A stretch of 63,796 nt of DNA, counting the filler, from Kipferlia bialata (Eukaryota): NCBI GenBank assembly GCA_003568945.1. It is 4 parts of 4 records of this genome, joined end to end, with 100 filler letters (N's around TTAATTAATTAA, not from the genome) between each part and the next. Parts side by side here need not be neighbours in the genome. Positions count along the whole stretch, not along the records: positions 1 to 19,666 come from BDIP01000182.1; 3 more parts are not named here. One strand, given 5' to 3'. Every line of letters starts with the position of its first letter. Within the stretch, counting starts at the first letter, position 1. A model generated the notes under the pieces. The model was not told where the DNA came from. It worked only from the letters and a program-made list of their open reading frames with translations, and did no database searches. A program made the position numbers and the translations under genes. Shown one piece after another: positions 1 to 60,970 of this stretch.

Positions 1-102
1 TTTATTCCCCGTTTTCCCATCCCCCCCCCCCCCCCCCCCCCCCCCCCTCCCTCCATAAGTATTAATCCATTATATGTTGTATTCTTTCTCCCTCACCCCC
101 AG

Positions 103-205
103 CCTCTCATCTGCCATGCAGCAGGACACCTCCGATGCCATGCACCTGTCTGGCCCAGAGGAGGTGGTCATGTGGCTCGACAACCAGCGCAACCAGATGC
201 TGTAG
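103..205 (+). CDS. Terminal exon of a gene running off the window (LSSAMQQDTSDAMHLSGPEEVVMWLDNQRNQML*)
   Basis: Acceptor ctcacccccag at 92-102, then a GC-rich open frame ending in TAG at 203-205. Product not recognisable. Confidence 0.6.
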
Positions 206-414
206 GTCTAGTTGGTGTCTTGTGGAGTAGTAATAGACGGTTTTGTGTTTGTCATCAGAATATATTGGCTTCTATTTCTATGGAGAATTGAACATTACTA
301 GGCCTAGTAAGCAAGAACTATATCCTAGACTTGAGGAGGGTATTCGAAAACAGCAACACCTCTGTGGCAGAGACACACAGTCTCCCAGGCATAGTACTCA
401 GTCCCTCTCTCATA

Positions 415-2971
415 TCAAAACATACTGTGTCTTGACAGTGGAGCCACCGCGAAAGGAGCCATCCTGAGTAGATCTTCCTCGAGTGTAGTTGGTGCAGCAC
501 CCTCTCTGACACCCTCAGACCTCACCACTGGCTTCTTGACCATGAGTCCCACCTCAGACGGTGTCTCAGTGCGGATCTGACCAATGGCAGCAACAATCTG
601 AAGGTGAGACTGATATGCAGAACAACACAAACGAGGCTAACAACATATATGATATAATACTGTCGTGGCATAGAGTGCCTAGGACTCCAACACAAACTGA
701 ACATGGGTATACCGCTTATGGAGGAGATTCACAACTATCACAGCATGTATACAATATAACTATCCATATACCTCGGGATCCTCAAGGCATCCAGCAATGC
801 CAGTAGGAGCGGGCCCACCGTAATAGCCTCCCCGTGATCTCGACCTGAGTGCACCCTCCTGGTGTATTCTCTGAATCTCCCTCAGCTCATTTTGCTGCAC
901 TCTGAGCTTCATCTGGGTATAAGCACGTTGGTATTAATAATGCTGCATTATGTATTTATAGTCTTGCCCAATAGTACCAGCCTGTATGTATGCATGAACA
1001 TCAGTGGAGGTCATTCACAATCACCCACCTGCAAGTCCCTCTGCTCCTGGGCCGAGAGGTTTCTCTTCCTCATCTTGAACATGATGGACTCCACCTCATA
1101 CTGCTGGTCTTCCTGGTGTCACTACTGGAGTAACAAGTACAAATACTGAGAAACGATATATTCTCATAATTGTATCACCTAGGTATAAACATCATACATT
1201 TACTCACCAGCTCCTCCTGAGTGACACACCGTGTCTTTGTTGTCCCAGTCTGAGGCTCTAGGCCGTTGCTTCGGGCAAGCTGTGGGGGTGAGCCTGCACG
1301 AGGTCCTGGTATATCCAATAGCAGAGATAACATAACTGTGGCAGTATATAGAGAACCAAGAATATCCTTGCATGTACAGAAATGAGAACACAGTATAGTT
1401 CTACTGGTATACCTTAAGTATGAGAGTCTCACAGGTGTCTCTCAGGTCTCTCCACTCTGCAACTAGTGCCTCCCGTGACTGGGGCACCAGCCACCTGCCC
1501 CTGCTAACCTCATCCTCCTGTCTCCACCTCTCTCTCCTGTTACTGTCACCGTTGGCATCCTGGGGTATAGCACCCAGCTCCCGCACTCGCTGACTGAGGG
1601 TGCTGTAGTCGGTCTTGCTGGGCTTGTGGGTGGCCACCTTTTCCTGTGGATACCCAGTTACAGTTTTAAGAGGGGGGAACGCCCCGGGATACTGGCGCTG
1701 AGTGGTCTGAGGCTCAGGCCAGGTCTGAGACTCTATGCGAGCACCTCCCTCCACCCGTCGGTTCTCAGCCTCAACAAGGGGGGACAGCAACATGTAGAGG
1801 GAGTCTATGGCGGTGTTGTACTCGGCAACACGAGGCTTAGCTGCACAGTACTTGCACCTAGGGTCAATCATAGAGAATAGAGGAGCTAAATACGGGAAAG
1901 ACAGACCAGACATAAAACTCATGCAGTGAATTCAAAGAAGCAGTGGTTAGAATCGTATATACCCAACGTGAATCCATGGCTAATGTATACATGTATACAT
2001 GTAAACAAGAAAAATACATTCAACATACTGATGTGTCAACACACACACACATACAGGTACATACCTGTCTGCAAGGGAGAGAGAGGCCATGTTCCCCCCA
2101 AGAGCAATGGGAACGTATCGCTCTGTGTCTCTGAGAACAGTCTCCAATCTCTTGACAGAAGTGAGAGCTGCCTGGACATGAAAATATGACAATGCACGTG
2201 TACAACGCAACACATAATGTGTTACACATGAGCAAGATAGTGATTGTATACATGCTATAAATCGAAGGCCATAACTGTGGGATGGACGTTGAAAACTGCC
2301 CTATTCACCAACATAAAGCATATGGGGAACACCAATATCTTGATACTATATTATGTATGATCTGAGATGCATGCATATATATATTAATTGTACCTGGGGG
2401 TCAAAGGAAGGGTCTATCTTGGCAAGCTCTGTGCAGAACTGCGCATGGGTTAGGACCAGAGACCTGAAGGATGCCTCAATCTCCCACTCTGACGGCTTTG
2501 TGCCCAACTGACTTATGTCCCCCTGATGTGAAAGTCATACAGTGATATATCCAAATTCATTACCACACTCTGAAGAATACGACACTGTATCCCAGCACTT
2601 AGTGTGGCAAACACCTGAAATGTTACACAACCTGAGATAGACAGAACGAGAGAGAACTGATATACAGGAAGAGAGGGTATACATATATATATACGTACCC
2701 GAAGAGCCCTCTGCTCGTCATAAGATGGCAGCTGGGTACGCACAGTCAGCAGATGGTGGTCGCACTTGAGCTTACTCACCATGTCTGGGATGTCCCGGGC
2801 TGCATCCAGGTAGGACACAAGACGCTGCCTCTTAGACTCCACGTCATCCTCAGCCACAGACTGCACAAGAGCAATGTGGGCTTGGAGCTTCTCCATGGAT
2901 TGCTTGGCGGACCCGTTCCGGGTCCCGGACCGGGAGGCCAGGGGATCTTGGAAATGCTCTGTCTGTGTCAT
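415..2971 (-). CDS. Multi-exon hypothetical protein
   Basis: GC-rich exons bounded by GT/AG. First exon MTQTEHFQDPL...SYDEQRALR, internal exon RCKYCAAKPRVAEYNTAIDSLY..., last exon IVAAIGQIRTETPSEV...RHSMF* ending at 415. No family recognised. Confidence 0.6.
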
Positions 2972-4079
2972 CTCCTCTTATAGTCTGGGTGTGAGTGACG
3001 CGATGAAAGGACAGGGAATGGGGGGGATGGTGGGAGGGGGGGGGGGGGGGTATGTTTATCCTATGGACATAAAGCTCAGTTGAACAAGAGTCATTCCCGA
3101 TGACAGGGAAGAGAGAGAGACTTGTGCGTTGAAAGACTCTCATATATTCACTATACAGTGCGGATTGTCTGGGATCGGGATTAAACTACTCCGCCTTGAT
3201 ATACTGACATCCAATACATAAATATCAAACCCTAAATACATATCTCTCACCTATACACCTCAACGTAAAGCAGAACATACAGAGTGTCACAAAGAAACGA
3301 AACTGGGACAACTTTGAGCCAATGGCTTCCACATCTGACCTCTCTTACAACCCAAGACAAACAAAAAACAACTTAACATAAAACTCACCAAATATAGGTC
3401 ACAGGAACACGTAACGGGTACGCAACTGCTCTTCAACCAGACTAAACAGCACTCGACGGAGGCTCAAGGAGAAGCAAACACGAAACTCAAAAGGGTGTAG
3501 GAATCCTACAGAAGGATGACCTTACTGAAGGCTTCAGCTAAGAAACACATCACAAAACCAGTCAGTAATTGTTCAGAATTGTATCCTTCGGGTTGGCAAA
3601 TGTTACCCTCCAGACAAGAGTACGGTGGTGTGAAGAGACAACTTGCCACCAACCAGCAATTACAATGGATACTGGGAGAAGGATAGGTCCACTGATTCTC
3701 CTGGTACCCTCTGGGTATTGCTGGGTACTACCCAGCACTTGTGACACGTGCGAGAATAGCAATAGACAGTGTTGTGTGTCACACACAACACTGTGTGTCG
3801 TTGGATAATTATACTATATTTGTAATAGTGTGTCTTCTGTTGAGTGAATTCAGACACTCTAACCCCTTCTGACCGTACTCCACTATGTCTATCACACATC
3901 CCACGATACTTGCGGAAAGTGTGTGAATAATAGACTGTTTTGTGTTTGTCGTTGTAAATGAATGGTGTGTGGCTTCTATTCAGTGAGAGTGATCTCCTTG
4001 TATATAGGTCAGACAGACCCCATAGAACTATCCCAGTGTCAGTAGTCCTGACTCAGGAGATATCACCTTGTAAGCCTCT

Positions 4080-7000
4080 TCACACACCCGACATGCTATG
4101 GGGCTGGATGCGTCGGAAGAGCACATCGCTAAAGGGCTCTGAGACACCGTCCTCGAATGCATCAGTCACCCAGATGGCATAGCAGCGGGAACCATCAGGG
4201 GTCATCCTGGGGTGAGGGACGATATATATATATATGTGTGTGTAAACATAGATGCAGACGATACAGCTAGTGGGAGTCTGATACCTGATCTGGGCCTCTC
4301 CGCTCATGCCCTCTCCCCTGGCCAGCCAGTACCACTGGGGCTTGTCGACCTTGTACTCGACTGGGTCAGCGTCGGATTCAGTGTCGACCACCCACCCGGC
4401 CTCATCATCGGTGTAGTAGAGCCTCTCCTCAAAGAGCTTGTCCCCATCTTCGGTATCAGTCGTGGCATCGGTGATGTCAGCACGGCCGTAGAACTGGTTC
4501 CCGTAGTTCCTGGAGTCAAACAACATGGAGAGGGGAATACTATAGCTATTGACAACACTATGACACTAATGTAAACACTCCACGTACTGTGAGTAGGAGT
4601 AGAAGATGTCTAGGGGTACTGGGGTTGCGATCTCCCCTGTCTCCTTATCCTTCTTGGGGTTGTTGTCTGTGCCATAGGCCACGTAGAAGGCACTGGTGTT
4701 GGGGACGTCCTCCAATGGATTGTAGTCAGTAAGGTCGAAGTCCAGCTGGGTGTTGTCGACAGTGTACACGATGTTTGTGGATCCGTGTCCCCCACTCTCT
4801 TGCTCCACCTCACCAGGGACAGATGCCAGTAGGTACTTGACAGCTCCGAACTCAACATCGTCAACGGTCTCAGCCTCTCTTGCAGAGCCTAGCAGCTCAT
4901 TCCACCTATCCTCAGACACCTCGATCTGAGCAGGCAGGACAGCGACACGTGGCTCAATCACAGAGTACTTGGTGTTGAGCATGTTGGAGAGATTGCGGGC
5001 TGGTTCCCAGTCGCCAGGTGCGTAGACACTCTTGACCAGGTTGGGTATCTCGGGCACTGTCTCGTAGGCCTCAGAGAGGACAGTGTCGGCGTCAGCTATC
5101 TCTCCCTCCCAGCTCTTGTAGTAGTCGTAGTGCACAGTGTTGACAGTCCCATTGGGGTCAGTCGTGAAGGTCTCGCCACCGTCGAAGGAGCGTCTGATCT
5201 GGGGTTAGAGAACGGTCCTCAGCAATAACACATTGGATTGTAGTATAAATACTGATTAAAGAGTCACCTATATCCACATATGTACAAACCTTGAAGTCAT
5301 AGACATCATTGCCGTGGGTCTGGGCTGCGTGGTTGGGAGCATAGGTGAATGCAATGATGAGCCTGTCCCCTATCAGAGACCCTCTGCTGGCCCTAGCCAC
5401 GTCCAGGTTGTTCACAGTGCTCGAGTTGTAGAGGTTGGCCTTGGTCTGGTGCCACAGGTACACCTGCACCTCACCGGCCCCCTCCTTCTCATCGTCCTTG
5501 GACACCTCAGATGGATCGTCTGCCTTCTGGGCCGCAGCGGCAGTGACTACGGCAGTGTGGCCACTGGTGTTCATGAGGGAGAGCTGGTGGGGCTCCAGTG
5601 CACTCTGCTGCTCCTCTGTCTCCACCACTGGGGTGATGCACACCTCAGAGTCCCATCCCTCGGGGGTCACCCGGAAGGCACACACGCAGTTCTGGCGTCA
5701 GTGTCGACCAGCCAGTGAGCGAGATACACGATTGCTCGGCATATATACATACACATAATCACCACTGGGTACCTCAAATGCATATGGGTTCTCAGATGGA
5801 TCAATCTGTCCCACTGGACCGTCTAACTCGTCCTCGAAGCGCTTAGTTGCGACAAAGCGCCTCATAAACTGATCGCTTGGACCTCCATCTCCCTCAGGAC
5901 CTGGGAATGAGTGAAAGAGTATTAGGATATGGATACCAGATCTTCACACTATCAGACTCAGAATGTATTATAGAATTCAAGCATAATGTGTACTGAATAT
6001 TATACACATGACCCTACCCTGCTTCCACAGTATGACCATCGCCAGCCCCTTGTCACCAATGTCGGCAGGATCTTGGGCAACAAACCGAGGACGGCGGGCG
6101 TTCTTGAGTGAGAGAGCAGTTAATGATAAAAACATGCATATAGTGACTCCTAATCCGTTGGTACCTCAGTTGCCAGCATCTTGCGGCCCCAGCAGTCCAG
6201 CTTGTAGTCGGTGACAATGGTCATGTTTTCATCTGCATCAGTTGTTGGCACGCACACGTCGGTCATGTCATCGAACACCTCGGTGCCAGTGGTCATCTCC
6301 ACCAGCTGCTCCCTGAGGTACACTAGGGCTGGCTGCAGGGCCGCAGTGCCCTCAGCTGTTAGCACCGGTGCCGTCTTGAGAATGGAGACACCCTGCACCA
6401 GGCCGTTGTTGACACAGTAACCGTCTGTCTCAGGGTCACACTCAGGGTCTAGGAAGTCGAAGTCGGGGTCCACCTTGGGGGTGCTGACAGACTGGACAAT
6501 GTCTGTGGTCTCTCCTGCTATGACGTAGTACACAACCTCATCGTCAATGGGCAGGGGCTGTGTGACGAAGGTTGTGACAGTCTCTCCATCAACAGTCTCT
6601 GTGACCTCGAACAGCCTCGGCTTGTTCCACTCATCCAGCACAACAGTAGTCATCTCGGGCATGTTGATGATGAACCCATCTGACACCACATCTGGATCGT
6701 CCATCCTAAAGGTCTGGTAGATGACATTCTTGCCAAGGTCTGGCTTGTAGGCCGGGTCGCCTGGGGTTAGACACAGTGATCCTGTCAGCAATTTACGCTA
6801 GTAGGCAGGTAATCTCAATGTACAATAGGCAATACCCCACCTGTGTCTCCATAGGGACTGTCAGCGTCAGGGTCAGACTCATCGCTTCCCAGGGGCTCAC
6901 CCCCTCCGACTCCCTTGGTCTGGGGTAAGGATATGCTCTCCGTGCCCGACTGATATCTTCATGTTTACATTTACATTTTCATAAATAGATTGATAGATAG

Positions 7001-9765
7001 ATAGACAGGTACCTCGTCGAATGCCACCATGGCATAGGCAGACATCTTGCCCTGGGTCGTGTCGAAGAATGGCTCGAGGTGGAGATTGGGTCTGGCGGCA
7101 GCGGTGTTGCCGTCAAGGGCGATACCGTCCTCGGTGACACAGATGAGCTTCTCCTCTCCCTAGGATGTCAGTATCTACTAGACACGAGAGGATAACACAC
7201 GATAACTCTTACCTGATGGTTACGCTTGTACAGCCACCTGCCCCCATGGTTGTACACAACTCCGCAGTCCTCGGTGGTGTGGAAGTAGTATGTGTTCCTG
7301 TCGATCAGGGTTGTCAAGTGACCACTGGGTCCAATACTTACATCAACTGCTTATCATACCTGACATCCTCGTCAACATTGGAGCCTCCACCGTGTGTGTC
7401 GTGGGGTGCCCGCAGGCACTTCTCGGGCCAATTAGCGAGAGCGTCTGCATTGGTCTCTGCCTCGCCATAGGTCTCAGCACAGAGTCCCACATATGGAGTG
7501 ACGTTGGTGACGATGTGGCCCCAAGTAGGATGGTTCTCAAGGATTGGATCATCATACGACACCTTAGACGTGGTCTTAGTGTCGCAGAGACCCTCGACCT
7601 TGTACCCGTAGGCGTGGCTGCCGCACCCAGTATCGGCCTCTGCCTCTCCATCCACTGCGTCGTGGCTGCCCTTGTCGATGTTGGGGTCATGGATGAAGGA
7701 CATGGCACCAGACGTATCCCACACTGAGCACTCAAAGATGCCCTCATCAGTAGGGTCATTCAGATCCTGTACAAACTCCCAGGTCAGACACTCTGGTCCA
7801 ATTTCCGGCAGACCGAACTTGTCGTCCAGCATAACCTGGGTGAATATTGACCCCTAGGGAGAGGGCCTCCACTTGAGATCACAAACTATACACAATGCCG
7901 AGTTGACACAAATGACTACACATACCTGCATGTTCTTGACATTCACAATGTCATTGTTCGAGAGCCTGGAGTGAGATGGCCCCACGGCACAATACATACA
8001 ACAACACCTCATTGGAGTGTATACTATATGCAGAATATATGGGTACCTGACAGGCAGAGACATCGGATGGGCAGCTCTGGGGCTGTATCCACTACTGGTC
8101 TGGGTCCCGTCGCCCTCCCCATCTGAAGTACCATCCCCAGTGGGATCATCTGGCTGGCCGTCGTGCTGCTCGTCGTCCTCGTCATAGGGTATGGTCTCTG
8201 CGAAGTTCTCCCAGCTGATGTAGCTGTACCAGATGTCTGGGGTCAGTATGGTCTATACATGTTAGATAGGTAATCTCTTGCATATGTGTACACTAGATAA
8301 GTATACCTGTCTTCTTGTTAGTGTTGGCGCCACTCCAGCCCTCTCCTGGGCCTCTGCCATCACCGGGTCTCAGGCCCTCGGGGTCCTCCTGCCACACTAT
8401 GCCAAACCCTCCCTCCTCGGCGCCACTCAGTGCGGCCTCCATGGCATCCCTTCTCCCACTGGTGAGTCTCTCGGGCTTGTACCTGGAGATGAGATCCGCA
8501 ATATGATCAGTGCCAATCGTCACAGGTATATATGCTGCATAGTAACCAGGACTATATGACTTGTGGTATCGGTATGTTAGGCCGTACCACAGAATGTCTC
8601 CGGCGAATGTGTACAGTGTCTCGATAACAGTGCCATTTTCATCAGTGATCTCCTCAACACTATCCTCGGTGGCAATCACGCCTCTACAGGTCCAAATGAC
8701 ACCATAGGGGACCTCTCCAACCTGGATATCAGATACCAATCATATCCAAGATCGGGAAGATACAGGATAATGGTTCAATGGTCAGATAACACAGTGGATA
8801 TCACCCACCTCCGGGTAGTCCTGGTAGGTATAGTCCACTGAGCGCTGGGGGCCGCTGACTCCCCTGATGTAAGAGTATATAGAGAAGTGAATGTATATAT
8901 TGTGGGGGGATAGCGGGTGAGCGGATATACTGCACCGTCATAGGATAGCAGCTGCTACTTCTAGTGTACACTCACCAGATATCCTTGGACTCATCATCCA
9001 GCAGGGTGTAATGAGGCTTGCCTCCCAGGGCATACTTACTGGGATGAGTCTTGCACAGTATGTTATGAACAAATGCACACTATTGAGTATACTTAGGTAG
9101 AACTATTCCACCCACCTGACCCACGACACCATGATGTAGTTATCGAGTACCACATTCTGGGGCTTCTCACAGGTACCAAAGTACTCGTCCCCGTTCTTGC
9201 GAGTGAAGGAGGACCGATCAGCACTCTTGGAGAGGTTCTTTCTCTTCCAGGTGTTACCATCGTCACGTGACACAGCCACCCAGATGTCGGATGAGTTGTA
9301 GTCGGTGTGGACGTCCTCGTGCTCGTCCGTGTAGACAGCGACAATTGGCTTGGCCATACGGGAGGCCCTAGTATCAGATATAGACAGAGAGGGAGGGACT
9401 CACACTATTCAGACACAAATACTATGAAAGAACTCACCGGAATACATTCCCCTCATCGTCAAAGTATGGCACCCCTCTGTACGTGTAGTCCCTGTCGACC
9501 TCCTGGACAGGTGCATCTGGGTCATTCACCACAACATAGTCAGAGTGGATGTAGTCGTCGAGTAGGTCAGTGGGCAGTCCGTTGGCCTGACGGGCAGGCA
9601 CCCAGACGTCCATGATCTCCTAGAGGTTAGCGAGACAAACCCGAGGATGTAGGTCTCATACTCTTTACAGAGATTATATGAAAAATGTATTATAGTATGT
9701 TCACATACCATTGTGGCCTTGGTTGAGAGCTGCTCAAAGGTCTTTGAGATGTTCTTCTTGAACAT
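4080..9765 (-). other. Choice-of-anchor O-like domain region (prokaryotic family) within the giant gene
   Basis: Ordered motifs recalled from prokaryotic choice-of-anchor O proteins: FKKNISKT; DIWVAVSRDDGNTWKRKNLSKSADRSSF; PERLTSGRRDA; IVWQEDPEGLRPGDGRGPGEGWSGA; RRSFDGGETFTTDP; EPARNLS; GEAQIR/MTPDGSR; SDVLFRRI. Family name is from memory; no HMM was run. Confidence 0.75.
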
Positions 9766-12700
9766 GTCAGGGGCATCCTTGCTGATGCTGCTCTCGAGGT
9801 TGTTCTTGGCATCACTTTGGGAGACCTGCATGTTGGGGGGAGGGGGTGAAGTGACCATAAGGAATGTGCTCTGCCATGCAGGGGGAAAACAGACAACTTG
9901 ATCCTGGACATGTATCCATACCTTTGTGAGAGTGATTCCATCGACACTGGCACTGGCTATTGTTGTGTTGATAACAGCCTCGACGTGTTCCGTGTCTCTC
10001 CAGTCCGTGATGACTCCATGGGTATCTAGAGCAGAGTTAAGATGCTTAATCACATCGTGGGTGATCTCAATGATGTTGTGGGTGACACCATCACTGTCCA
10101 GGCTCTGAAGGAGCATGGCCATGTTGGCTACACGGACATCGTCTGGGAGTGAGACAGTATCTATCTATATGTATATACCAGAGCATGTATGTGATATGTA
10201 TACAACGCACCCATGTCAGAGAGGGGCAGTACATCCATGGGGTATATGCGTCTGTCGAGGGTGGTGGTGCCCAGGAGCTGGTTGCCAACATAGAAGCTGG
10301 CCCTGTCGCCATCTGTGTAGAAGGCCCCTCCATTCTCATCTAGCGTCTGCAGGCCCCCACTCTCCATCACAACAGTGAGGTTGCTGACGGGCTTGTCTAT
10401 GAACTGAACCCTGTTCCGCCCAAAGTAGTTGACTCTGCACTCGCCAGTGACAAAGTGCATACTCTCGTACCCCATGCCGGTCTCTACCATCAGAACCATG
10501 TTGATGGAGTTGCCAGTGGAGACAAAGGAGATGATGTCCTCGGCTGGAGAGTCTCCCATGTAGTTGGATATACAGGGATACTCGAGGGTGAGCCCGTACC
10601 CGTAGTCCCTGTTGATACTAGCTAGGTACTCTGCGTCAGTGCTGGTGGGGTCAATGGCACCATACGATGTGCACTCGGTGTTGGTGGTGAGGGAGAGGTA
10701 GTCCTCGGGTGAGGCAATAGTCACGTGTCTCAGGCTGCACTGACGGTCACTGTTGTTGTCAAGGGCCAGCTTGACCTGGACTGTCTGGGTGCCATCAGTG
10801 TTGGCCTTGAGGCAGTAGAGCTCAGCGGTATACCCACAGAGAGGGGTGTGGTTGCACTGGTGCAGCAGGGGGATGGGGTCTAGGTGGCAGTCGCACTCCT
10901 CCTCAGCGAGTGTGGGAGAGAGTACCATGTGCATGCCAGCAGTAGTGGTACAGTCACTGGGGGTGGCAGTGCTAGTCCCAGTGACATTGCCAGTCTTGGC
11001 ATAGGTGACTGTGTACTCATAGGGCATGGGGACACCAGATGGGACAGACCAGAGTGCATACTCACCCAGTGCATCTGTGGTAGCTGTCGCAGGGTAGGCA
11101 TCCAGTGACACTATGACACCCTCAATAGGGGCACCATCAGTGTCAGATACCATGCCAGATATGACGTTGGGGCATGTACCGACAGTGTGGGTGTTGACCC
11201 CACAGTGCAGAGGGGGGAGATCCTCAACATAGGCCTGGTGGTGAGATAGTGCATGTACATCACACGCCTCCAACAATAGTAGTAATGTAAAGAAGTGTGG
11301 TACCTGTCCGTGGTTGTCGAAGAATGCCACCAGCACCTCACTGACAGGGGTGTCAGTGACAGTGGGGACAATGTCTAGGCAGGAGGTGAGTGAGGGGGCT
11401 GCACTGCCATCAGTCACTGAGTGGCCGAGGTATGCCTTGGTGCCAGGCACAGACACGTCGTAGTAGTACACGTAGATCCCATCAGCGTAGGTACCATCCA
11501 TGTTGGTGACTGACACACACACAGACTCCTCGAGACAGGGCACTGCGATGTCCAGGGTACTAGACCCACACCCAGGGAAGGCGGGGGTGAGTGCGGCGTC
11601 TCCGTCTGCAGTGGTGGGTATGGTAGTGACAGTGACAGGCCAAGCACCATCAGGCACACCCACAATGGAGTATCTACCCAGGTCGTCAGTGGTGCCACTG
11701 CGTATGGGGTTGGTGCCCACTACCACCTCAGCATCAGGCACTGGGTACCCGTCAAAGGCATTGGTGATCTGGCCAGTGACGGCTGTGGCGCACTGGGTGT
11801 GGAGGGTCTCCTGGGTCAGCCCGTACCCCAGCTGCACCACGGCCTTGTTCTCTGTGTCCTCATACACCCACTCCACCGTCACCTCCTCCATGTCCCAGGA
11901 GGGCAGGGGTAGGACGGAGGCAGGGGAGAGGGCACGGGTGGAGTGGCCTGAGGCACAGGAGGCAGTACCAAGCAGGTGACGGGGGGAGGTGGTCTCGTCG
12001 AAGAAGGACAGGGTGATGCCTGGGGTGAGTATTGGACTTCTCGCACTCGCAAAGATATAGCGACGCATCTCTCTACACACTCACCTTCTACCATTGCCGG
12101 GTTCCGTGCATAAGGATCCTCACACAGTCCAACTGACACACTCTGTTGTACACATGGCACAGTCTGTTTGACAGTGGCCGCACGACACCAGGGGAACGTG
12201 TAGGTCACACCATCCTGCATGGTCTGGCCCGGGAGACCGGGGACAGTACTGACAGCCATCGTGTAGGTGCGTCCGGCGAGTCCCTCAGGGAGGGCGTCGA
12301 AGAGAGCAGTACCGTTGGCGTTTGTCTTGGCGGAGGCGTGGTAGACACCGTCTGTGGAGGAGAGAGAGACCGTGGCGCCCTCTGGCTTGACGGAGTGTGG
12401 CAGGGCAGTGGCTACGTTGACTGTGAGAGAGGGTCTAGTGCGACAGAGGGGGGAGAGAGAGGCGTCTACAGTGACAGTGCCACAGCGAGAGAAGTTGGCC
12501 ATCTCGGTATGGGAACAGACGTGGGGACCGGAGAACTCTACGCGGAAGAGAGAGTGGCTGTGGGAGGCAGTGGTGAGATCGAGAGAGTAGCTGCCTGACG
12601 CGTCTGTGTCACAGGAGGCCAGGGGGAGTAGAGAGTCAGGGGCGTATGCTGTGACATGTACATCTGCCATGCCCTGTACAACACTGGCTGCACTCACCAC

Positions 12701-13499
12701 CTGTCCCTGCACCCTGGCCACCCTGCAGTTGGGCCCAGGGGAGTAGTGGCGCAGGTTGGCACAGTCGTTGAGCATCTTCTTGTCAAAGCACTCATCGTCA
12801 CACCTGGGTCAGTATCGGTGCAAGGGTACAGCTGTGTCATAGGTAGTGTTAGTACTATATAGTCCATATATCCCACCTCCTCAGGGACTTGTGGCAATTG
12901 TCAGACCCGATGAGGTAAGGGTTGCAGTTGACCTAGGGTGAGGGGGGGTGAGGGGTAGGCAGATATGGAGCACGAATGAGAGTGTATACTAGTAAAGGGG
13001 TACCTCCACTCTACGCAGTGTCCCGCCAGTCAACCCCTGTGGCACCTCTCCCTCTAAGTGGGCACAGCTGGCAGTGAGTGTCAACATGGGTGTGTCCTTG
13101 GCTGCCCCTAGACAGGAGGGGAGGGCGGCATGCATGGAGCTGTTGCTGACATCGAGGGTCTGGAGGTAGGGCATGGTGCAGACACCTGGGGTCAGGGTAT
13201 ACATATATATACATATACATATACTCCATATCAATGAGGAGATGTCTTTGGGGGGGGGGGTCTGACACGTACATGAAGGCAGGGCACCAGAGAGGGTGGC
13301 GTTGGACAGGTTGATGTGGGCAAGGCGGGCGGCCTGAGGTCATTGAATGTGGACAGAGAGGGGAAATGAGGGTGAATACTGGGTTGGGGAGGGGGGGTAC
13401 ACACAATACTCACCTGACAGAGTCCGACGGGGAAGGAGGTCACGAGGTTGTTGTTGGTGGCTGACAGCGAGTGCAGGTTGGGGAGACAGCCCAGTGAGC
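4080..13499 (-). CDS. Giant multi-exon extracellular-type protein: LRRs + carboxypeptidase-regulatory-like beta-sandwich repeats + bacterial adhesin-like domain + choice-of-anchor O-like module. 5' end lies in the gap.
   Basis: LRR exons (LGCLPNLHSLSATNNNLVTSFPVGLCQ; LAHINLSNATLSGALPS; LPYLQTLDVSNSSMHAALPSCL). Repeats such as ISGMVSDTDGAPIEGVIVSL...ATTDALGEYAL. In-frame splice joins checked at 12085/12021 and 10211/10142. Stop at 4080 after SDVLFRRIQPHSMSGV. Confidence 0.75.
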
Positions 13500-13635
13500 C
13501 TGGCGGTGAGGGTGAAGGGAGGGGAGGGGGGGGGGGGCAGAGAGGATTGGACTTTGGGGGTCAGATAGGATTGGATTATTAGACTGTCATGGGGGGGGGG
13601 GGGGGGGGGGGAAAACAAAATAAACCGGGGGGGCC

Positions 13636-14436
13636 NNNNNNNNNNNNNNNNNNNNNNNNNNNNNNNNNNNNNNNNNNNNNNNNNNNNNNNNNNNNNNNNN
13701 NNNNNNNNNNNNNNNNNNNNNNNNNNNNNNNNNNNNNNNNNNNNNNNNNNNNNNNNNNNNNNNNNNNNNNNNNNNNNNNNNNNNNNNNNNNNNNNNNNNN
13801 NNNNNNNNNNNNNNNNNNNNNNNNNNNNNNNNNNNNNNNNNNNNNNNNNNNNNNNNNNNNNNNNNNNNNNNNNNNNNNNNNNNNNNNNNNNNNNNNNNNN
13901 NNNNNNNNNNNNNNNNNNNNNNNNNNNNNNNNNNNNNNNNNNNNNNNNNNNNNNNNNNNNNNNNNNNNNNNNNNNNNNNNNNNNNNNNNNNNNNNNNNNN
14001 NNNNNNNNNNNNNNNNNNNNNNNNNNNNNNNNNNNNNNNNNNNNNNNNNNNNNNNNNNNNNNNNNNNNNNNNNNNNNNNNNNNNNNNNNNNNNNNNNNNN
14101 NNNNNNNNNNNNNNNNNNNNNNNNNNNNNNNNNNNNNNNNNNNNNNNNNNNNNNNNNNNNNNNNNNNNNNNNNNNNNNNNNNNNNNNNNNNNNNNNNNNN
14201 NNNNNNNNNNNNNNNNNNNNNNNNNNNNNNNNNNNNNNNNNNNNNNNNNNNNNNNNNNNNNNNNNNNNNNNNNNNNNNNNNNNNNNNNNNNNNNNNNNNN
14301 NNNNNNNNNNNNNNNNNNNNNNNNNNNNNNNNNNNNNNNNNNNNNNNNNNNNNNNNNNNNNNNNNNNNNNNNNNNNNNNNNNNNNNNNNNNNNNNNNNNN
14401 NNNNNNNNNNNNNNNNNNNNNNNNNNNNNNNNNNNN
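13636..14436. other. Assembly gap (~800 N, no linker)
   Basis: Continuous run of N, preceded by a poly-G tract. Confidence 0.99.
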
Positions 14437-14555
14437 TACCAGTCTGGTGGCGGCCTCTCTCCTGCTATAGCATCATTCCCCCCCCCCCCTCTCCCACCCT
14501 CACATCCTCCACCTATCTGCCATCCCTACCCCCATATATATACACTTACACACAG

Positions 14556-17500
14556 GATGCTCAGGACACCCTGAACAAGGCCCGTAAGGCCCTTCCCACA
14601 AGCAGTGAGGTATGGGGTCTATTCTTATGGCATTCACGACATGTGTCACGAAACATGTACCCTTCCCCCCTCTATCTATCAACCATATTTGATATTTGCA
14701 CTATCTCTTGCATATTCTAGTGAGTAACCCCACCCCAGGTGTGGATTGCCGCCGCTGCCCTGGAGGAGACCAGAGGCTCTGGGTCACCAGAGATCATATC
14801 CCGCATCCTCAAGAAGGTGGGGGCCGATGTCGCTCTTTTTAGCATACTTCTATTATGGTGTCTCCTTCCGCATTTGTTTTAGTCCTTCTCTCATCGTCGA
14901 TGTGTGTCTATCTCCGCTGTCTATCCACGCTGTCCTGACCCCCAGGCTCTGAAGGCCCTGGCCAAGAGAGGGGCAGAGCACTCCAGGGAGCACTGGATCC
15001 AGGTGGGTGGAGATGTGTTCTGTACAGCTGCAGGTGTCAGGTGTCAGGGGATGTCCCTGACACCTTGCCCATGGATTGTATTATCATACACATATCCCCA
15101 TCGTGTGTCCTCCCCCTTGCCTCACTGTCAGGAGGCATACTCTGCCGAGGGGGATGGGTGTGACATCACAGCCAGGGCCATTGTGCAGGTGGGTATGGGG
15201 TGGATGGGCGCTGTCATTATCTTGGCAACCTCTCATGTCACAGAGGACAGTTTGTCAATTCATTTCTTTCCTCTCTATCTCTCTCTTCTGACTCCCAGGC
15301 TGTGTTGACTATGGGTCTCCAGCCAGACCAGTACAAGAGGTCCCTGATCTACGGTACGTCCATTGTGCGTGTGTAGTATGTAGCCTCATTGCCATTGAGT
15401 ATCTGATCCCCCTCACCCCAGCTGGCAAGCAGGCCTGCCTCGAGCACGACAGGCCTGTGTGTGGGGTGGCCATGGTGGAGGGACTGCTGCAGATGGACGC
15501 AGGGTTTGAGAAGGTATGTAGTTGCACTGTATATATTCATAGATAGACTCTGTGTCTGTATATGTATAATGTGTGTCCCCTGTCCTCACCTTCAGAGCAC
15601 CGACGTGTGGGTGGAGCTTATCCCCCTGATCCAGCACACCATCAGGCGCTACATGACCCAGATGAACCAGAGGGTGAGGCTGACGTGTATGCACATACAT
15701 AACGTTTATATACTCGCACCCAGCATTGCCTACATTCGTATACTTGCTGACTGACGATACCTCCATTGGCTGACAGATACTGCTTATATCGGCTGACTCT
15801 CAGGTGTCGGTGAAGACTGAGGGAGAGAGGGAGCAGGAGAGAGACGCAGAGGCCCAGGCAGAGGCAGAGGCCGAGAGAGAGAGAGAGAAGCAGGGAGAGG
15901 CCGGTGCTGAGGGGGACGTGCAGATGGGAGAGGGAGAGGGAGAGAAGGAGAGGGAGGGGGTCCTCGACCGAGACGCCGAGGCCCTCAAGAGGTGGAGGGC
16001 AAAGCTCAAGGCGGTGCTCGACCAGGTGGGGGCACACTTTCTCTCTCTCTTTGCCTGTGTATCACAATGCCATTCCCTCAATCCCCCTCCTCACCCCCTA
16101 GGCCATTACGGCCATCCCCACCTTCGGCCCCTTCTACCTCCATGCCGCCAACAGTGCCCTCGGTACGTGTATATACATTTGAATGTACTCTTATGGAGAT
16201 ACAGTATTATGATCTTCGTTCCTCCCCCTCTAACCCCAGAGGATCCCTCCAGAGGCCCCTCCGAGGCCAGGCCTATGCTCAAGAGAGCCCACTCCCTGTG
16301 CCCTGGGGACTACCAGGTGCAGGGTCATATTGTGTTGTGATAATGATACTGATACTGATACTGATACCTGGGGACTACCAGGTGCAGTGGGGGAATGCGG
16401 GTCATAGTATTTACCAGTGACAAGAAGTGTTGCACATGAGTGTTCTCATATTCACAGCATCCCCTCCCTCTCTCTCACTCTAGGTCTGGAGGGCTGCATA
16501 CCGTCTGGAGCTCGATGAGGGTGATGAGCAGGTATCCGTTTGTGCTTGTAGATGAGTATATAATTGAATCCAGTGTTATGCTGTCTTATAGTGTGCATAT
16601 ATACAATACCTGCATGTATGCCACTGCCTATGCCTATCTCTCTAGTCTCCATATCCATACCCATCCTGCCCCACTCCATATAGTATGCATGTGTACAGTA
16701 TGTCCCACCCCAGGGTGCCAGGGAGGTGCTGAGGCAGGCCAGGCTCAGATGCCCCAACGTGGCCAGGGTGTTTGTGGACAGGTATCATATATAGTTGATA
16801 TATAGATACTGATACTGATACAGGGTGTTTGTGGACAGGTACCACCTCTCTTCGTGTCTAACTGCCTACCCCTCACCCCAGCGCTGCCCTTGAGCGTGAC
16901 ATTGGCACCCCCCTGGATGAGCTGGTGATCCTCAAGCAGGGCGTGGCCGTGCACCCCACCGACATTGACATGTGGATGTCTTCCATAAACGCAGCAGCAC
17001 GCTACCAGGTATCCCCCATGTCTCTATATGGGTACATTCATCCCCCTCTGCCCTCTAATTGATGTAGACATCTGATACCAGGCCGAGCAGACGAGACTCA
17101 AGACCGAGGTCAAGATGGAGCCCGTCAAGATGGAGGTGGGTGTGGGTGTACGCTGCCTCAGAATACTATTCATTGAGTACTATGTGGTTCATGCAATGCG
17201 TACCCCAACCTCTCCTCTCTGACCCAGGGCGATGCCGAGGTTGCCAGGCTCAAGGCCCTGGCCGACAAGGCAGCCAAGGAGACGGAGGTGGGGACGGATG
17301 GATATGTAGATATATATATATATATACATATATTGACATGGCAGCCAAGGAGACAGAGTAGAGAAGGGAGGATGTCAGCACTGTTACTGTACTCTCTCCC
17401 CATCCCTCACCCCAGATTGAGACCTTCTGCGACCCCCTTGCCATTGCCTCCAAGGCACTTGGCATCAACCCAGCATCCTCAGCCCTATACATCGCTGTGT

Positions 17501-18788
17501 CAGGTACGGTCCTCACCCACATGTGTTGACTGGCATGTCTTCTCTCTCTCTCTCTCCACACCTCAACCCTGGGACATGTTACACCATACCCTGTATGTCC
17601 CTGCCTCAGTCTGTCTCCCTGTATGCATAGGTGCCTCACCCCCCAGACCAGCACCTGGTCAAGGGCCAGCGGAGCAGGGGCAGGGCAGTCCTTGAGAGGG
17701 GCATCCAGAAGTGCCCAACCAGGTACGCACTCTCTGTATGTGGCAGTATCCGTGATTGTATGTCTGATGCATATAGCCTTCTACACCTATACTTACTGTC
17801 AGTGAGGACATGTGGCTGTCCCTGGCCAGACTCGAGCTGGGAGACGCCAAGAAGGGTGAGCGTGATGTGACCAAGGCACTGTCCGTGCTGTCCAGGGCAC
17901 TCAGGGTGCTCCCTAGGTATATGGGCATGTATATACAGTAGAGGACACCAATGTGTATGAGTGACTCATTGTACAACATCAATCGTCAGCCCCACACCCA
18001 GGTCCCCCCGTATCCGAGGTGCTGAGACCCTTCTAGTGGACACCAAGTATCAGAAGAAGAGGCTCATCGACGCTGTCAAGGTGTGTATGCATGTGTATTC
18101 AGGCTAGGTCGCATACCCTCCTCCCACCCCAGACATGTGGAGACCAGGACACAGTCATCCTGGCCACAGCGTCCAAGGTGTTCCACAACCAGGGTGAGGA
18201 TGGCGTGTATGCTACTGCACAACGCACAGTCCATACAACTCAAATATATTGTTTCATTGTATCATTGGCCAACCCCAGGCAAGCAGCGCAAGGCGTCCGA
18301 GTGGCTTGTCAAGGCTCTGAACACAGAGACTGGCGCCACAAACGGAGACCTCTACGCCCTCGCACTTAAGGTATTGACAGTAACTCTATATATATATATA
18401 TGTGTGTTCTACAAGTCCCCCACCCCCCCTTACCCCAGTACCTGCGCATGGGGGCCAAGGACCCTGACCCTGAGAAGCAGAGGGAGAGGCTGGCGCAGGA
18501 GGCCGAGATTGTGCGCAAGGTGTCTGTGACCGATATTGACAGTGGGGTCATCTGGATGAAGGTGAGAGACGTGGAAGTGTGATGTATTCATATGTTTGTA
18601 TTGTATCTTGATTCCCACCCTGAGTGCCTTGACCATACTGATACTTACACTGACACTGATACTGACACTGATACTGATACTGACTCTGATGCCAGGTCAT
18701 GGAGGACCCAGCCTCCAGGGGCAAGAGTGTGCGAGAGGTGCTGGACCTGGTGGTGGGGAGGGTCCGGACTGACTCCCTCGACCTCTAG
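14556..18788 (+). CDS. PRP6: Pre-mRNA processing factor 6 (U5-102K, HAT/TPR repeats), multi-exon, 5'-partial
   Basis: Spliced peptide DAQDTLNKARKALPTSSE|VWIAAAALEE...RILKK|ALKAL...SREHWIQ|EAYSAEGDGCDITARAIVQ matches the Prp6 signature. Also RAVLERGIQKCP|SEDMWLSLARLE and KASEWLVKAL...GDLYA. TAG at 18786-18788. Confidence 0.9.
18636..18695 (+). repeat. (ACTGAY)n hexamer array at the 3' end of the last PRP6 intron
   Basis: atactgatacttacactgacactgatactgacactgatactgatactgactctgatgccag. Confidence 0.85.
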
Positions 18789-19666
18789 GCTATGGGCTGG
18801 AGTATGGATGTGGAGAGATAGTGTATTGGACACTAAAGGGATAGTCTACAAGAGACAGAGTACGTGCATAAATGATGTGTGATACCTGTAGTGTCGGGGG
18901 TCTCGCAATAGAGAAAGACAACAGTCGTATCACAACTGGCACACAGGACTTTACAACGGTGTTTACTGCCTTTTCTCCATGGGTCCTAAAAGCGAGTTAT
19001 GAAGAGTATTCAGCTATCATTCTGTCAGCATAGGACAGTCAAAGATACTGGCAAGGGGCTCAAGTAACATTCTCAATAGTTATCCAACTCCGTGGTCATA
19101 ACTTATGGCTCACAAGTTGCTTAAAGCAATAGGTCTCTTCAGGTCTCAGAACTCATATTGCATTCCGTCGGTGTTACGTTGTAGTACCACATAAGTTTTA
19201 CAGTACAACTAGTACTGACTGATACTCTTGATCAGTGAGGAGACTTGATTTGAAATCTGTGGTTAGTGACACTAATTATACGTGGTCAACCTTGTTGACT
19301 CAACCTGACATGATGTTGACACTGTGTTGTCAGTGACAACTTGTCACAACATGATACTATGTTGTGTCAGCATACTTGATACGGGTATCGCTATGTACCC
19401 ATTTCAAATGAGTCATTTGGGTAACACGGCCAGTGTCACATTATACCATGATGGTGAACTTCAATTTCTGTACGTGAACTGCGCACTCTAACTGTGACTG
19501 CTGTTGCTACATCATGTAGCCTGCATGACTTGTAGACAGTAACTTACTGAGTAAGTAATTGTACAGTTGCACCACAGGCATTGACCAGTGGTGGGCTATC
19601 TGCACTCTTGACCAGGGCTGCCACTTTTCAAAATACCGCGTCCAGATCCAGTGGATCAGTGGTGGA

Positions 19667-19766
19667 NNNNNNNNNNNNNNNNNNNNNNNNNNNNNNNNNN
19701 NNNNNNNNNNTTAATTAATTAANNNNNNNNNNNNNNNNNNNNNNNNNNNNNNNNNNNNNNNNNNNN
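19667..19766. other. Artificial contig linker N44-TTAATTAATTAA-N44
   Basis: All-frame stop / PacI-containing 12-mer at 19711-19722, centred in exactly 100 nt. Confidence 0.95.
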
Positions 19767-20097: not shown

Positions 20098-23000
20098 CTA
20101 TGGCTTGAACACATCGTCCATGCAGTCAAAGTTCTGACTCTGCTTGTCTATAAGGATGCTTCTGATGTCACTCATCAGCCTGGCCTCCACTGCGGCATCG
20201 TCCTGAGGCATCAGTGTATGGAATGAGTATCTATAGAAGTATGCATGTAGTCATAGATACAGTGCAGTATGTCTTGAAAGATGACACCATCCTGTAGGCT
20301 GGCCGCAACCGCTGCATCGTCCTGAGGCATGATCAAGAAGAGACTCACTCGGTATTCTAGATACTAATTATAGGATATAATTTATAGCGTCAGAACATTC
20401 AGAGCTGCGGCAGTCTGGGCCAAGGATAAGACCATATAGTTTTGTCTATCACGCACCTTACAGTCCAGGTCCCCCGATGTGATGTCCTCTGCTATGCTGT
20501 CTGCTGCACCCTGCAGTGCTAGACCCAGGGCAGTGACCTGGGCCACGACAGTCATCTGGAATGTTAGACTACAAAGTATAGGTTCATAGCCAGGAGTATA
20601 GGCGAAGGTGGGTGAGTTGTACAATTGCTTGACTATACAGAAGAGTAGAGGGGAAAGAGCCTCCACAGTCATCTGGGACATTCGATTACAAATAGTAGTA
20701 TAGGTATATAGGTGTACTTTCTATCGTGTTACTATATATCTAAATTGCATTGTGCCCCTACCTCATTCAAAGACAGGCCAAAGTCGAACTGAATGTCGAA
20801 CATGAGTTCGTCCCCGCACTCACACCACCCGACTAGGTATGTCACATAGACACTGCTCAGCTTACAGGTGGCATAACCATTGCCTGAGGCACCGACCTGC
20901 ATGTTAACGGATGTCAGATGATTTACTGGGGAAACACATATGCCAAGTGTAATCACTAGCAAATACAGAATAGTACAGTAATGTATTCATACATATACAC
21001 ATTATCGCTTCTTTACAATTGGATTGGTACCTTGATCGTTGCTGATGTGGCGACACTGGATGTCAGGCTGTCTGGCAGGGTATCCACCAGAGACACTGCC
21101 TCACAGACTGTGCCACCGCCAATGATGGCCTGGGGTCAGGGTGTGAATACGATACATATACACCCAGAGAATTACTACTGACAGTGATATCTGTATATAT
21201 CCCACCTCATCCTCCAGGCCCTCTCTCTTGTACACGACGTTAGAGCGGGACTTGGCAGTACCAGTCTCCCCACCCACAGTCACAATCTCTTGCCCCTATT
21301 GGTGAGAGGGAAAACGTACTTCTAGAGTACAACATCACAAGCAACATCCCCCAACGTATTGACTTTACAGAATACTTGTTAGAAATACATCGTCTCTATA
21401 GTAGAAATTATGACATCCGCCCCTAACTTAAAGCAGTAGCAAGGATAGTGTAGATTACGGCCTCGTAAGTATGGACGAGTATTCTCACATCCTTATCTAC
21501 GTGTGGGTTTACTCATAATACACCTCCACGACACGATACTGAATATAGCCACGTGCTCTGCACAGTGCTATGCAGACGATGTACATACCTCTACATCTGC
21601 GTATGTGTCTGAGGATGGGTCAGTGATCTCATCGACAACCGCATCAATGGCCTGGGGTGAGGCATCATATGACACAGTGAGGAAATGCCATGTAGAAAGG
21701 ATTGATATCATAGTGCTCATTGGCAATGGTCCATGGCTGCACGGTGCAGCCTGCACCCATACCTGGTCGAGGCCTGGTGGGATGGGAGCAAACTCAAGGG
21801 CTATGTCCTGAAGGGTGGGAGGGAGCAGAGAGGGAGCATCTTGAACAGTCTCTCTTACTCAAGATTACATATATACCCAATGATAGAATAGAATACCATT
21901 CTGTCGACGAATATACACCTTTGTCCCAAATGAACTCTAACATTCATATATATAATCATATGCACCAGTATCAACATACCTTGATGACATCGAGTGCCTG
22001 GACGAATATGACCGTGTCCTCAATAGGATCAAATGCACTGGACTCAGTCTGCACCACTGCAGCTGCGGCACCTGGTTGTCACAGGAGAGTGAGAAAGACA
22101 ATGAGTATAGTTACATGATAGCCAGCCATATACACAAGTGCTACCAGTGTACCGTACCTGTGACAGCTGCTGTGCACTCTGGTGTAACTACTCCAGCAGT
22201 ATCTAGTTTATTATCTAGTATATATATGTACATATATTACTAAGACACCCTACCTGTGACAGCTGCTGTGCACTCTGGTGGGTGTGTCCATGTCATGGTG
22301 TGGATGCCACTGCCGGATACAGACTCCTGAAGGTGAGCAAATTGCAGACCGTATCACTCACAGATAACAATAGTGCAGTAACGCATGACATTGTACTGCT
22401 ATTCCAGGGTAGGGATGAGTATATATTTAGCCCTCCCACCTGCAGTGCCTCTGTCGACCACACCCACTCTGTGCCCTGGTCCTGGGGTTAGGGATTGATG
22501 TGTGTATATATATATATGCGTGGGTGTAGATAGATACATAGTGAATGGATACACCCACTCTGTGCCCTGGTCATGGGGTTAGGCAGAGAAAGAGAAATAT
22601 ATTTAGAATGAGAAGGGTATATCTAAAGTGGAGATATGGAGATGTGTATGAGAAGTGTATATCATGTTGGAGAATGAATGACATATCGCTTCAGAAACGG
22701 TGTGAATGTGATGACTGAAGGAATGCCGACTATACCTTGAGGAACACTGTCTTTGCATAGGCAGAGGCCTTGCCCCCAATGAAGTCATCGCCTGGGTCAG
22801 AGTGGGGTATCACATGACCACTGTAGTATATACCATGTAAACATGTTCATACCTCTATGGAGAATGCTACAGTAGGTAATTAGTATCTGTTGTGTACTTG
22901 TATACAATGAGTATACATATGTCTACCTGTAAACAGTATGATGGATGCCGGGGGTGCACCGGTCAAGAAGCCACTGCCATCACCAACGGCCTCCTCAATG

Positions 23001-34236: not shown

Positions 34237-34336
34237 NNNNNNNNNNNNNNNNNNNNNNNNNNNNNNNNNNNNNNNNNNNNTTAATTAATTAANNNNNNNN
34301 NNNNNNNNNNNNNNNNNNNNNNNNNNNNNNNNNNNN
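34237..34336. other. Artificial contig linker N44-TTAATTAATTAA-N44
   Basis: 12-mer at 34281-34292. Confidence 0.95.
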
Positions 34337-60870: not shown

Positions 60871-60970
60871 NNNNNNNNNNNNNNNNNNNNNNNNNNNNNN
60901 NNNNNNNNNNNNNNTTAATTAATTAANNNNNNNNNNNNNNNNNNNNNNNNNNNNNNNNNNNNNNNNNNNN
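60871..60970. other. Artificial contig linker N44-TTAATTAATTAA-N44
   Basis: 12-mer at 60915-60926. Confidence 0.95.

Follow-up and report, generated by a model that had tools for sequence, protein, structure and literature searches.

Can a bacterial surface-protein module have become a eukaryotic gene, and what might its product do? The question is raised by a 63,796-nucleotide (nt) stretch of DNA, here called the window, which joins four parts of the genome assembly of Kipferlia bialata (GCA_003568945.1), a free-living, oxygen-avoiding single-celled eukaryote; positions 1 to 19,666 come from BDIP01000182.1. An initial annotation, made from the sequence alone, had described positions 4080..10420 as a prokaryotic choice-of-anchor O module split by introns. 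We found this region to be the 3' part only of a minus-strand gene, KIPB_001314, which is genuine and expressed. It belongs to an uncharacterised family, was acquired laterally, and has been fused and duplicated; its mechanism we infer. Overall, we place a probability of about 0.5 on the reading that this chimeric, spliced gene carries a bacterial propeller that likely binds, and perhaps cleaves, extracellular anionic ligands.

A protein block of probable bacterial origin within a spliced Kipferlia gene

The KIPB_001314 protein scored 450.4 bits (E 1.3e-134) against NF040591, the choice-of-anchor O profile, whose curated cut-off is 125, and by this score it is a member of the family, as had been proposed. 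Seven of 16 exon frames matched NF040591 in gene order, and the exon matches covered profile positions 2-583 of 670, also in order. The motifs first quoted were all recovered on the minus strand, with FIDKPVSNL, YTDGDRASFYVGNQLLG and VANMAMLLQSLDSDG in model residues 885-965 and the other two at the positions listed further below; the core was acidic as described, aspartate and glutamate making up 18.5%. The domain upstream of the core, thought to resemble a module of bacterial surface proteins, proved to be one: for 121 of 129 proteins, one of which is the record of this gene itself, a single alignment began in the FIDKPV module and continued into the core, and the two are parts of the same bacterial protein. 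In homologue P0003 the module weakly matched NF037974 (SslE/AcfD; E 2.3e-7).

The gene model, based on splice signals and homology, comprises the following features.

4080..13499, minus strand: modelled coding region, 28 exons and 27 introns, with an open frame of 2,410 amino acids (aa)
4082-4080, minus strand: stop codon of the model
13413-13334, 13272-13186, 13003-12933, 12876-12804, 12084-12020, 11303-11235, minus strand: introns 1-6 (donor-acceptor, as in the next four lines)
10210-10143, 9921-9826, 9708-9620, 9437-9368, 9115-9039, 8975-8864, minus strand: introns 7-12
8808-8722, 8587-8483, 8306-8237, 8046-7966, 7925-7836, 7359-7298, minus strand: introns 13-18
7212-7160, 7012-6920, 6840-6761, 6164-6103, 6017-5901, 5772-5692, minus strand: introns 19-24
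5289-5199, 4587-4510, 4284-4207, minus strand: introns 25-27
13500..14436, minus strand: one more intron, with its acceptor at 13500, together with the 5' end that the assembly lacks (N gap 13636-14436)
3973..4079, minus strand: 3' untranslated part touched by the X2 contig, provided that the last two modelled introns are correct

All 27 modelled introns are GT-AG and 53-117 nt long, and 21 of them lie within 4080-10420, in keeping with the "well over ten" introns with host-type acceptors originally counted there. The model residues are identical to residues 21-2430 of the public K. bialata KIPB_001314 record (GIQ80506.1). At the 3' end of 21 of the 27 introns the branch point is fused to the acceptor, a likeness to the fused sites of diplomonads described in the accessible text of PMC6679479. 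In the remaining 52.9 kb of the window this fused motif was counted 147 times, where 20 Markov simulations gave 112 +/- 6, and the intron acceptors are therefore host-type. Introner-type repeated introns were ruled out, matches between introns being merely 12-17 nt long.

Run X2, which is presumed to be RNA, yielded a single spliced contig of 7,826 nt that matched in eight listed pieces with zero mismatches, and its coordinates agreed with the gene model at 15 of 15 checkpoints. These checkpoints bracket 21 of the 27 introns, three by direct junction and 18 by exact summed exon length; the remaining six (the four 5'-most and the two 3'-most) are supported by the open frame and by their match to the GenBank model. 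Positions 3164-3939 were without X2 cover. The check on spliced expression that had been suggested thus gave a positive answer and, with X2 taken as RNA, KIPB_001314 is a real Kipferlia gene that is transcribed and spliced.

The 5' limit originally set at 10420 did not hold, as the gene stays in frame to at least 13499 and then enters the N gap at 13636-14436. The X2 contig departs from the window at 13503, being joined at the 13500 splice site to an exon that the assembly does not contain, and its loose end translates as another leucine-rich repeat (LRR). The first 20 residues of the public record (window 13500-13560) are largely intron sequence. We infer that the 484 nt left on the 5' side of the contig belong in the N gap, which likely holds the signal peptide, the LRR cap and the first LRR.

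An LRR and Ig-like front shared by two paralogues

The initial annotation had located the bacterial block and missed both a paralogue and a front of 880 residues, made of LRRs and immunoglobulin (Ig)-like repeats. The parts of the protein are as follows.

12797..13499, minus strand: plant-type extracellular LRRs, model aa 1-130, four introns inside (PDB sequence matches)
10902..12724, minus strand: Ig-repeat stalk, aa 155-717, two introns; the repeats are Cys-bounded and of CarboxypepD_reg / prealbumin-like type
10428..10892, minus strand: Cys-containing domain, probably all-beta, without a family match, aa 721-875
9766..10415, minus strand: FIDKPV (AcfD/SslE-N-like) module, aa 880-1041, where the bacterial block starts (the fusion point)
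4107..9765, minus strand: choice-of-anchor O core, aa 1042-2402; its loop insertions are long and acidic
9247-9270, minus strand: Asp-box of blade 1, SRDDGNTW (motif scan)
8326-8394, minus strand: the family's most conserved motif, WQEDPEGLRPGDGRGPGEGWSGA, in the Gly-rich b-c loop of blade 3, which propeller geometry assigns to the top face
5166..5189, minus strand: Asp-box of blade 6

The top PDB sequence matches of aa 1-130 were LRR receptor kinases (E 3e-29). The extracellular-type LRRs recall plant LRR receptor ectodomains and polygalacturonase-inhibiting proteins; unlike plant LRR receptors, the Kipferlia protein has few repeats, no transmembrane segment and no kinase part. The LRRs of BspA-type metamonad proteins belong to a different class. 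NCBIfam matches to XopAC/XopAE were discarded as LRR-derived, weak and far below cut-off. The stalk scored 75.1 bits against PF13620 (cut-off 32.3) and has about six repeats, counted by eye. Elsewhere in the window, Ig-like repeats of the CarboxypepD_reg type recur at 24166-25089 on the minus strand (E 7.8e-8 and 4.3e-5), in another gene that contains introns and probably spans about 20400-25100; its similarity to the studied protein was undetectable by tblastn. The host owns further stalk-type proteins of this sort. For the Cys-containing domain, the single-sequence fold was not usable (predicted local distance difference test, pLDDT, 42.7) and the Atlas match was weak (0.91, low recognition). 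This domain was rejected as a counterpart of the N-terminal domain of the bacterial homologues, since a 116-sequence profile scored below the top shuffles and hhalign gave a probability of 0.2. The Ig plus Cys region (10428-12803) is intron-poor, with two introns in 2.2 kb (binomial p 0.008 in a post hoc test), and may represent a younger or separately acquired stalk. Over its whole length the model has 21 N-glycosylation sequons and 55 Cys.

At the other end, the absence of a visible C-terminal sorting signal reported at the outset was confirmed: the protein has no C-terminal transmembrane segment (over the last 80 aa the 19-residue hydropathy is at most 0.29), contains neither an LPxTG nor a PEP motif, and stops 9 residues past the last strand. 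Since at most 24 residues follow the last strand in 37 of 56 bacterial rows as well (at most 52 in 46 of 56), this does not represent a eukaryotic loss. One tested bacterial member carries PEP-CTERM, and the tails of some members are of SLH, Big, cadherin-like, Flg_new_2 or PEP-CTERM type. Compared with bacterial choice-of-anchor O proteins, KIPB_001314 is similar in its FIDxPV module before the core, its eight predicted blades and, for most of the members sampled, its short C-terminal tail; it differs in the 21 introns of its block, in about 300 residues of extra loop insertion, and in the LRRs, Ig-like repeats and Cys domain that replace the bacterial N-terminal domain. Its stalk is N-terminal, whereas the SLH, Big and PEP-CTERM tails are C-terminal in the bacterial members seen.

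Two is a lower bound for the number of Kipferlia copies. The second, KIPB_000941 (2,775 aa), was among the 150 of 805 matches listed in one homologue search and scored 450.6 bits against NF040591. It starts with a hydrophobic, signal-peptide-like N-terminus (hydropathy 2.48), continues with LRRs and their cap and with Ig repeats, and has a full core attached at the identical fusion point. Residue 91 of this copy aligned to model residue 2 of KIPB_001314, from which about 90 aa are missing from the latter model, and the 484 nt placed in the gap are large enough to encode them. The front halves of the two copies gave no match at E <= 0.01 among 299 other stored proteins and 680 open reading frames (ORFs) of the bacterial loci described below, so the fusion is seen only in Kipferlia.

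Bacterial relatives and probable lateral origin of the block

Homologue searches gave 605 matches (120 listed) and 805 matches (150 listed; 1.84 billion representatives). Searching was not exhaustive, as one search did not return the known paralogue KIPB_000941. From the best 80 of 132 matches we obtained 74 genome loci, all bacterial by title and none archaeal; of the "bacterial/archaeal" family originally described, the bacterial part is therefore borne out among these loci and the archaeal part is not. They include Desulfobacterota, Anaerolineae, Clostridia, Gammaproteobacteria, Acidobacteriota and others, and the carriers are mostly anaerobes. Two-component genes recur beside the family gene in 35 of 74 loci, and sigma factors, tandem paralogues and secreted proteins of unknown type are further neighbours. 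In 13 loci (e.g. L043:9069-10487) the gene directly downstream encodes a candidate partner, a conserved secreted protein some 470-520 aa long that has no match in Pfam. Tandem pairs are common in bacteria, an A-type member bearing FIDxPV standing beside a divergent B-type without the module (L004, L011, L022, L023 and L042, also L001, L012 and L054; both are A-type in L011). Descent of the C-terminal half of KIPB_001314 from the divergent B clade was rejected, as 15 of 22 diagnostic sites are A-type and 4 B-type. No mention of choice-of-anchor O, NF040591 or KIPB_001314 was found in a literature search that covered material other than subscription papers and bioRxiv supplements, nor any gene ids in the searched supplements of the genome paper (PMC5874029).

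Final trees were built from 50, 27 and 16 rows chosen to cover clades, with distant paralogue rows left out of the last two. In all three, both Kipferlia copies nested inside the bacterial tree, with a best bacterial identity of 48-51% over trimmed columns. The branch leading to KIPB_001314 is long (0.86-1.4) and lies within the main bacterial clade, where no sister group has support; the phylogeny that had been recommended therefore placed the copies among bacteria and stopped short of a nearest relative. Among 30 proteins looked up by name, with 120 of 605 and 150 of 805 matches listed, only the two Kipferlia ones bore a eukaryotic label. Kipferlia is thus the sole eukaryotic lineage found, among the matches listed, with this uncharacterised and strongly conserved bacterial family. 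We have little doubt that the bacterial block was acquired by lateral transfer. Transfer from bacteria to metamonads is already a known kind of event, and lateral gain of surface proteins has been noted for Kipferlia BspA in the accessible text of PMC5874029.

One transfer followed by duplication is the simplest account, and a single event is probable. Weighing against it, the two copies were unjoined in all three trees, FastTree, a method prone to joining long branches, included, and one separating branch had 98/95 support. Two separate transfers onto one LRR-Ig scaffold, or the swapping of one propeller for the other's, would explain this pattern. However, monophyly of the copies was not rejected by the approximately unbiased test (p-AU 0.195 with 27 rows; 0.315 with 16 rows and a mixture model), and both copies have the same fusion point and scaffold. 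Rare residues common to the two copies number 13, where bacterial rows have a median of 3, although counts of 14 and 12 were obtained for two distant paralogue rows. We therefore regard two transfers or a swap as unlikely. 

The block contains 21 introns, or 4.6 per kb of coding sequence, alongside a genome-wide density of about 7.2 per kb (Table 1 of PMC5874029, which includes fragmented gene models). Provided that the block is bacterial, these introns were gained after the transfer, and transferred genes of this type would make lineage-specific intron gain directly measurable; the genome paper, in its accessible text, favours an ancestral origin of Kipferlia intron richness. The 21 gained introns, the long branches and the duplication suggest that the acquisition is old. 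Of the "old horizontal transfer" first proposed, the bacterial origin and a long residence in the host are upheld. Contamination, a chimeric assembly or a decaying pseudogene, which might be suspected because the Kipferlia culture depends on food bacteria (PMC5874029, accessible text) and an assembly gap interrupts the 5' end, has a negligible probability and is refuted by the read contigs and gene model unless the X2 contig is artefactual: the 27 spliceosomal introns (rightly held against contamination from the start) and the spliced X2 contig are joined by a single X1 DNA contig across 3032-13414, the intact 2,410-aa frame, a GC content at third codon positions of 0.66-0.76 in all five parts of the gene, the second intact copy KIPB_000941, and a closest bacterial identity of only about 50%.

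A predicted eight-bladed propeller with a charged ring

The fold was predicted by AlphaFold2 on the bacterial homologue P0043 with 60 sequences, and the Kipferlia core (1,360 aa) was mapped onto it by alignment. The P0043 model (pLDDT 83.7; predicted template-modelling score 0.82) has strands arranged as eight four-stranded blades, the last of which is closed by an N-terminal strand, and 32 of 32 propeller strands aligned in the Kipferlia core. Asp-boxes fall in the c-d loops of blades 1, 6 and 7, two of them clear and one degenerate. The core is thus predicted to be an eight-bladed Asp-box beta-propeller. The top VIA-align rows, which cover residues 145-1045 of the P0043 model, were CylK (Z 16.1, root-mean-square deviation (rmsd) 4.7, 342 aligned), ODA16 (Z 16.0, rmsd 2.9, 326 aligned), Fbw7 and Cdc4 (Z 15.6) and Ika8 (Z 15.5; rmsd 3.1, 316/318 aligned). 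We take ODA16, Ika8 and most top matches to be eight-bladed and CylK to be seven-bladed. A PDB sequence search with the family profile matched SLH tails only and found nothing for the core. In Foldseek the leading rows belonged to sialidases and to ulvan lyases, with E values from about 2e-6 to 2e-5.

Like GH33 sialidases, GH74, Vps10/sortilin and the PL24/PL25 ulvan lyases, the core has Asp-boxes in c-d loops and Arg-rich starts of inner strands. A GH33 sialidase was nevertheless rejected, since eight blades rather than six are predicted and the F/Y-R-I-P motif is absent from both Kipferlia copies and P0043. GH33 enzymes also have an Arg triad and a Tyr/Glu nucleophile pair in a set geometry; at the sequence level, invariant Arg and Glu are present in the family. 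The accessible text of a 2009 survey (PMC2716378) gives 5, 6, 7 and 10 blades for Asp-box propellers, eight being absent, and describes the known ones as mostly glycosidases that act at the top face; that of PMC9218822 names no eight-bladed propeller with an Asp-box. The family would thereby gain a testable structure, for which candidate residues of the pocket can be named and in which two natural paralogues differ at conserved sites.

Conservation is strong: 136 of 155 sites that are near-invariant in bacteria (>=95% in 52 bacteria) are kept in KIPB_001314, and in a second set of 171 sites KIPB_001314 keeps 150, KIPB_000941 154 and the median bacterium 168. The residues with which the inner strands in blades 1-8 begin, in a register set by eye, are K1057, K1189, D1301, R1634, R1889, R2059, E2172 and E2365. 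Two of these are carboxylates of particular interest.

8446..8448, minus strand: Asp1301, where blade 3's inner strand begins; a candidate for a catalytic or ligand role, with Asp also found in 46 of 48 bacterial rows
4953..4955, minus strand: Glu2172, where the inner strand begins in blade 7, the blade opposite blade 3; candidate pocket residue, with an acidic residue in all 48 bacterial rows

Nine residues (R1300, E1321, D1322, R1634, R1888, R1889, R2059, N2076 and R2174) do not vary across the 48 bacterial rows, and both Kipferlia copies retain them. A basic ring with opposed carboxylates is typical of enzymes and binders of anionic sugars. Changes found in KIPB_001314, and neither in its paralogue nor in the family at large, are H2058S, W2077H, H1702Q, H1345K, E1659D and K1059T. 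As these are conserved polar or aromatic positions, its specificity has likely shifted; KIPB_000941 has its own changes at other conserved sites, and the comparison suggests divergent specificity of the two copies.

A possible function outside the cell

We propose that a gene of the AcfD-like plus choice-of-anchor O type was taken once from an anaerobic sediment bacterium, and that the block was fused behind an LRR-Ig scaffold before intron gain and duplication. Export of the KIPB_001314 protein through a signal peptide encoded in the gap appears highly likely. Outside the cell, the LRRs would bind a partner or act as a tether, the stalk would extend the propeller outward, and the Lys/Arg ring of the top face, with the opposed Asp and Glu, would grip an acidic glycan or similar polyanion. 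Such a polymer might come from prey bacteria or sediment, and be met at the cell surface or in food vacuoles. For this complete arrangement of tether, stalk and propeller gripping an anionic polymer we would offer slightly less than even odds. A gene that has been kept, fused, duplicated and expressed is probably useful in anoxic sediment.

Several observations weigh against binding of an extracellular polyanion or against its premises. The signal peptide of KIPB_001314 itself is unseen, its 5' end lying in the gap, and run X2 is a guessed RNA run from a sample identical to that of the DNA run X1. To our knowledge no activity is known for any choice-of-anchor O member, and a shared fold is no proof of function; the Foldseek matches to sialidases and lyases are weak (template-modelling scores 0.1-0.4, identity 7-12%), and "top face" and "opposite" were assigned by blade order rather than measured distances. 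Many carriers are sulfate reducers, which are not noted as polysaccharide degraders, and no sugar transporter, glycosidase or sugar-use cluster recurs beside the 74 bacterial loci. In addition, 12 of 92 bacterial family ORFs contain at least two CxxCH motifs (L022, L024, L028, L031, L042, L054-L058, L062 and L069), an indication of redox chemistry; in P0001 and P0099 these lie in the insert or loop between blades 3 and 4.

The two-component and secreted neighbours, the lack of a sugar cluster and the CxxCH-bearing members make a redox or small-anion role a serious rival: the protein could be a redox enzyme dependent on a cofactor or metal, or a hydrolase of small inorganic anions, used extracellularly in sulfidic sediment. 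Eight-bladed enzymes include pyrroloquinoline quinone (PQQ) dehydrogenases, cytochrome cd1 and tetrathionate hydrolase. The mainly anaerobic carriers and the roughly 50-78% identity across phyla are compatible with such a role and a small ligand. NirF (Z 12.0) and tetrathionate hydrolase (Z 11.8) do appear in the lower VIA-align rows, but their scores are below those of WD40 scaffolds. Eight blades, predicted here, are a feature of quinohaemoprotein and cytochrome cd1 enzymes, yet CxxCH and the PQQ-repeat motif are absent from both Kipferlia copies, Pfam PQQ or cytochrome D1 matches are absent, and KIPB_001314 is without three His common in the family. We consider a redox or small-anion function of the Kipferlia protein rather unlikely.

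A non-catalytic adhesin or surface-coat component, in which LRRs, stalk and propeller serve particle attachment or prey recognition, would suit the SLH, Big, cadherin-like, Flg_new_2 and PEP-CTERM tails of bacterial members, as well as the changes at conserved residues H2058S, W2077H, H1702Q, E1659D and K1059T. The choice-of-anchor A domain is found in Acanthamoeba proteins that we take to be the Jonah lectins. A precedent is provided by the adhesive Trailins of diatoms, secreted protist proteins that reuse bacterial choice-of-anchor A domains; choice-of-anchor A is unrelated, however, having an ice-binding-like fold where O is a propeller (10.1101/2023.03.06.531300, accessible text). Neither copy has a membrane anchor beyond the N-terminus and both retain the invariant charged ring. 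Adhesins usually need less conservation of charge than such a ring displays, and we judge an adhesin to be an unlikely reading as well. Improbable, in our estimate, is a scenario of prey sensing, in which the LRR-Ig stalk would twice have captured a propeller of an undescribed enzyme class, the pocket would have turned from catalyst to binder, and the bacterivore would recognise bacteria by their own surface module.

Neighbouring features of the window

Positions 14437-16600 of the plus strand hold an intron-rich gene that starts at or inside the N gap at 13636-14436; this gene and KIPB_001314 probably lie head to head, less than 1 kb apart. At 19667-19766, 34237-34336 and 60871-60970 the window contains paired runs of 44 N with 12 bases between them, a pattern of scaffolding type.

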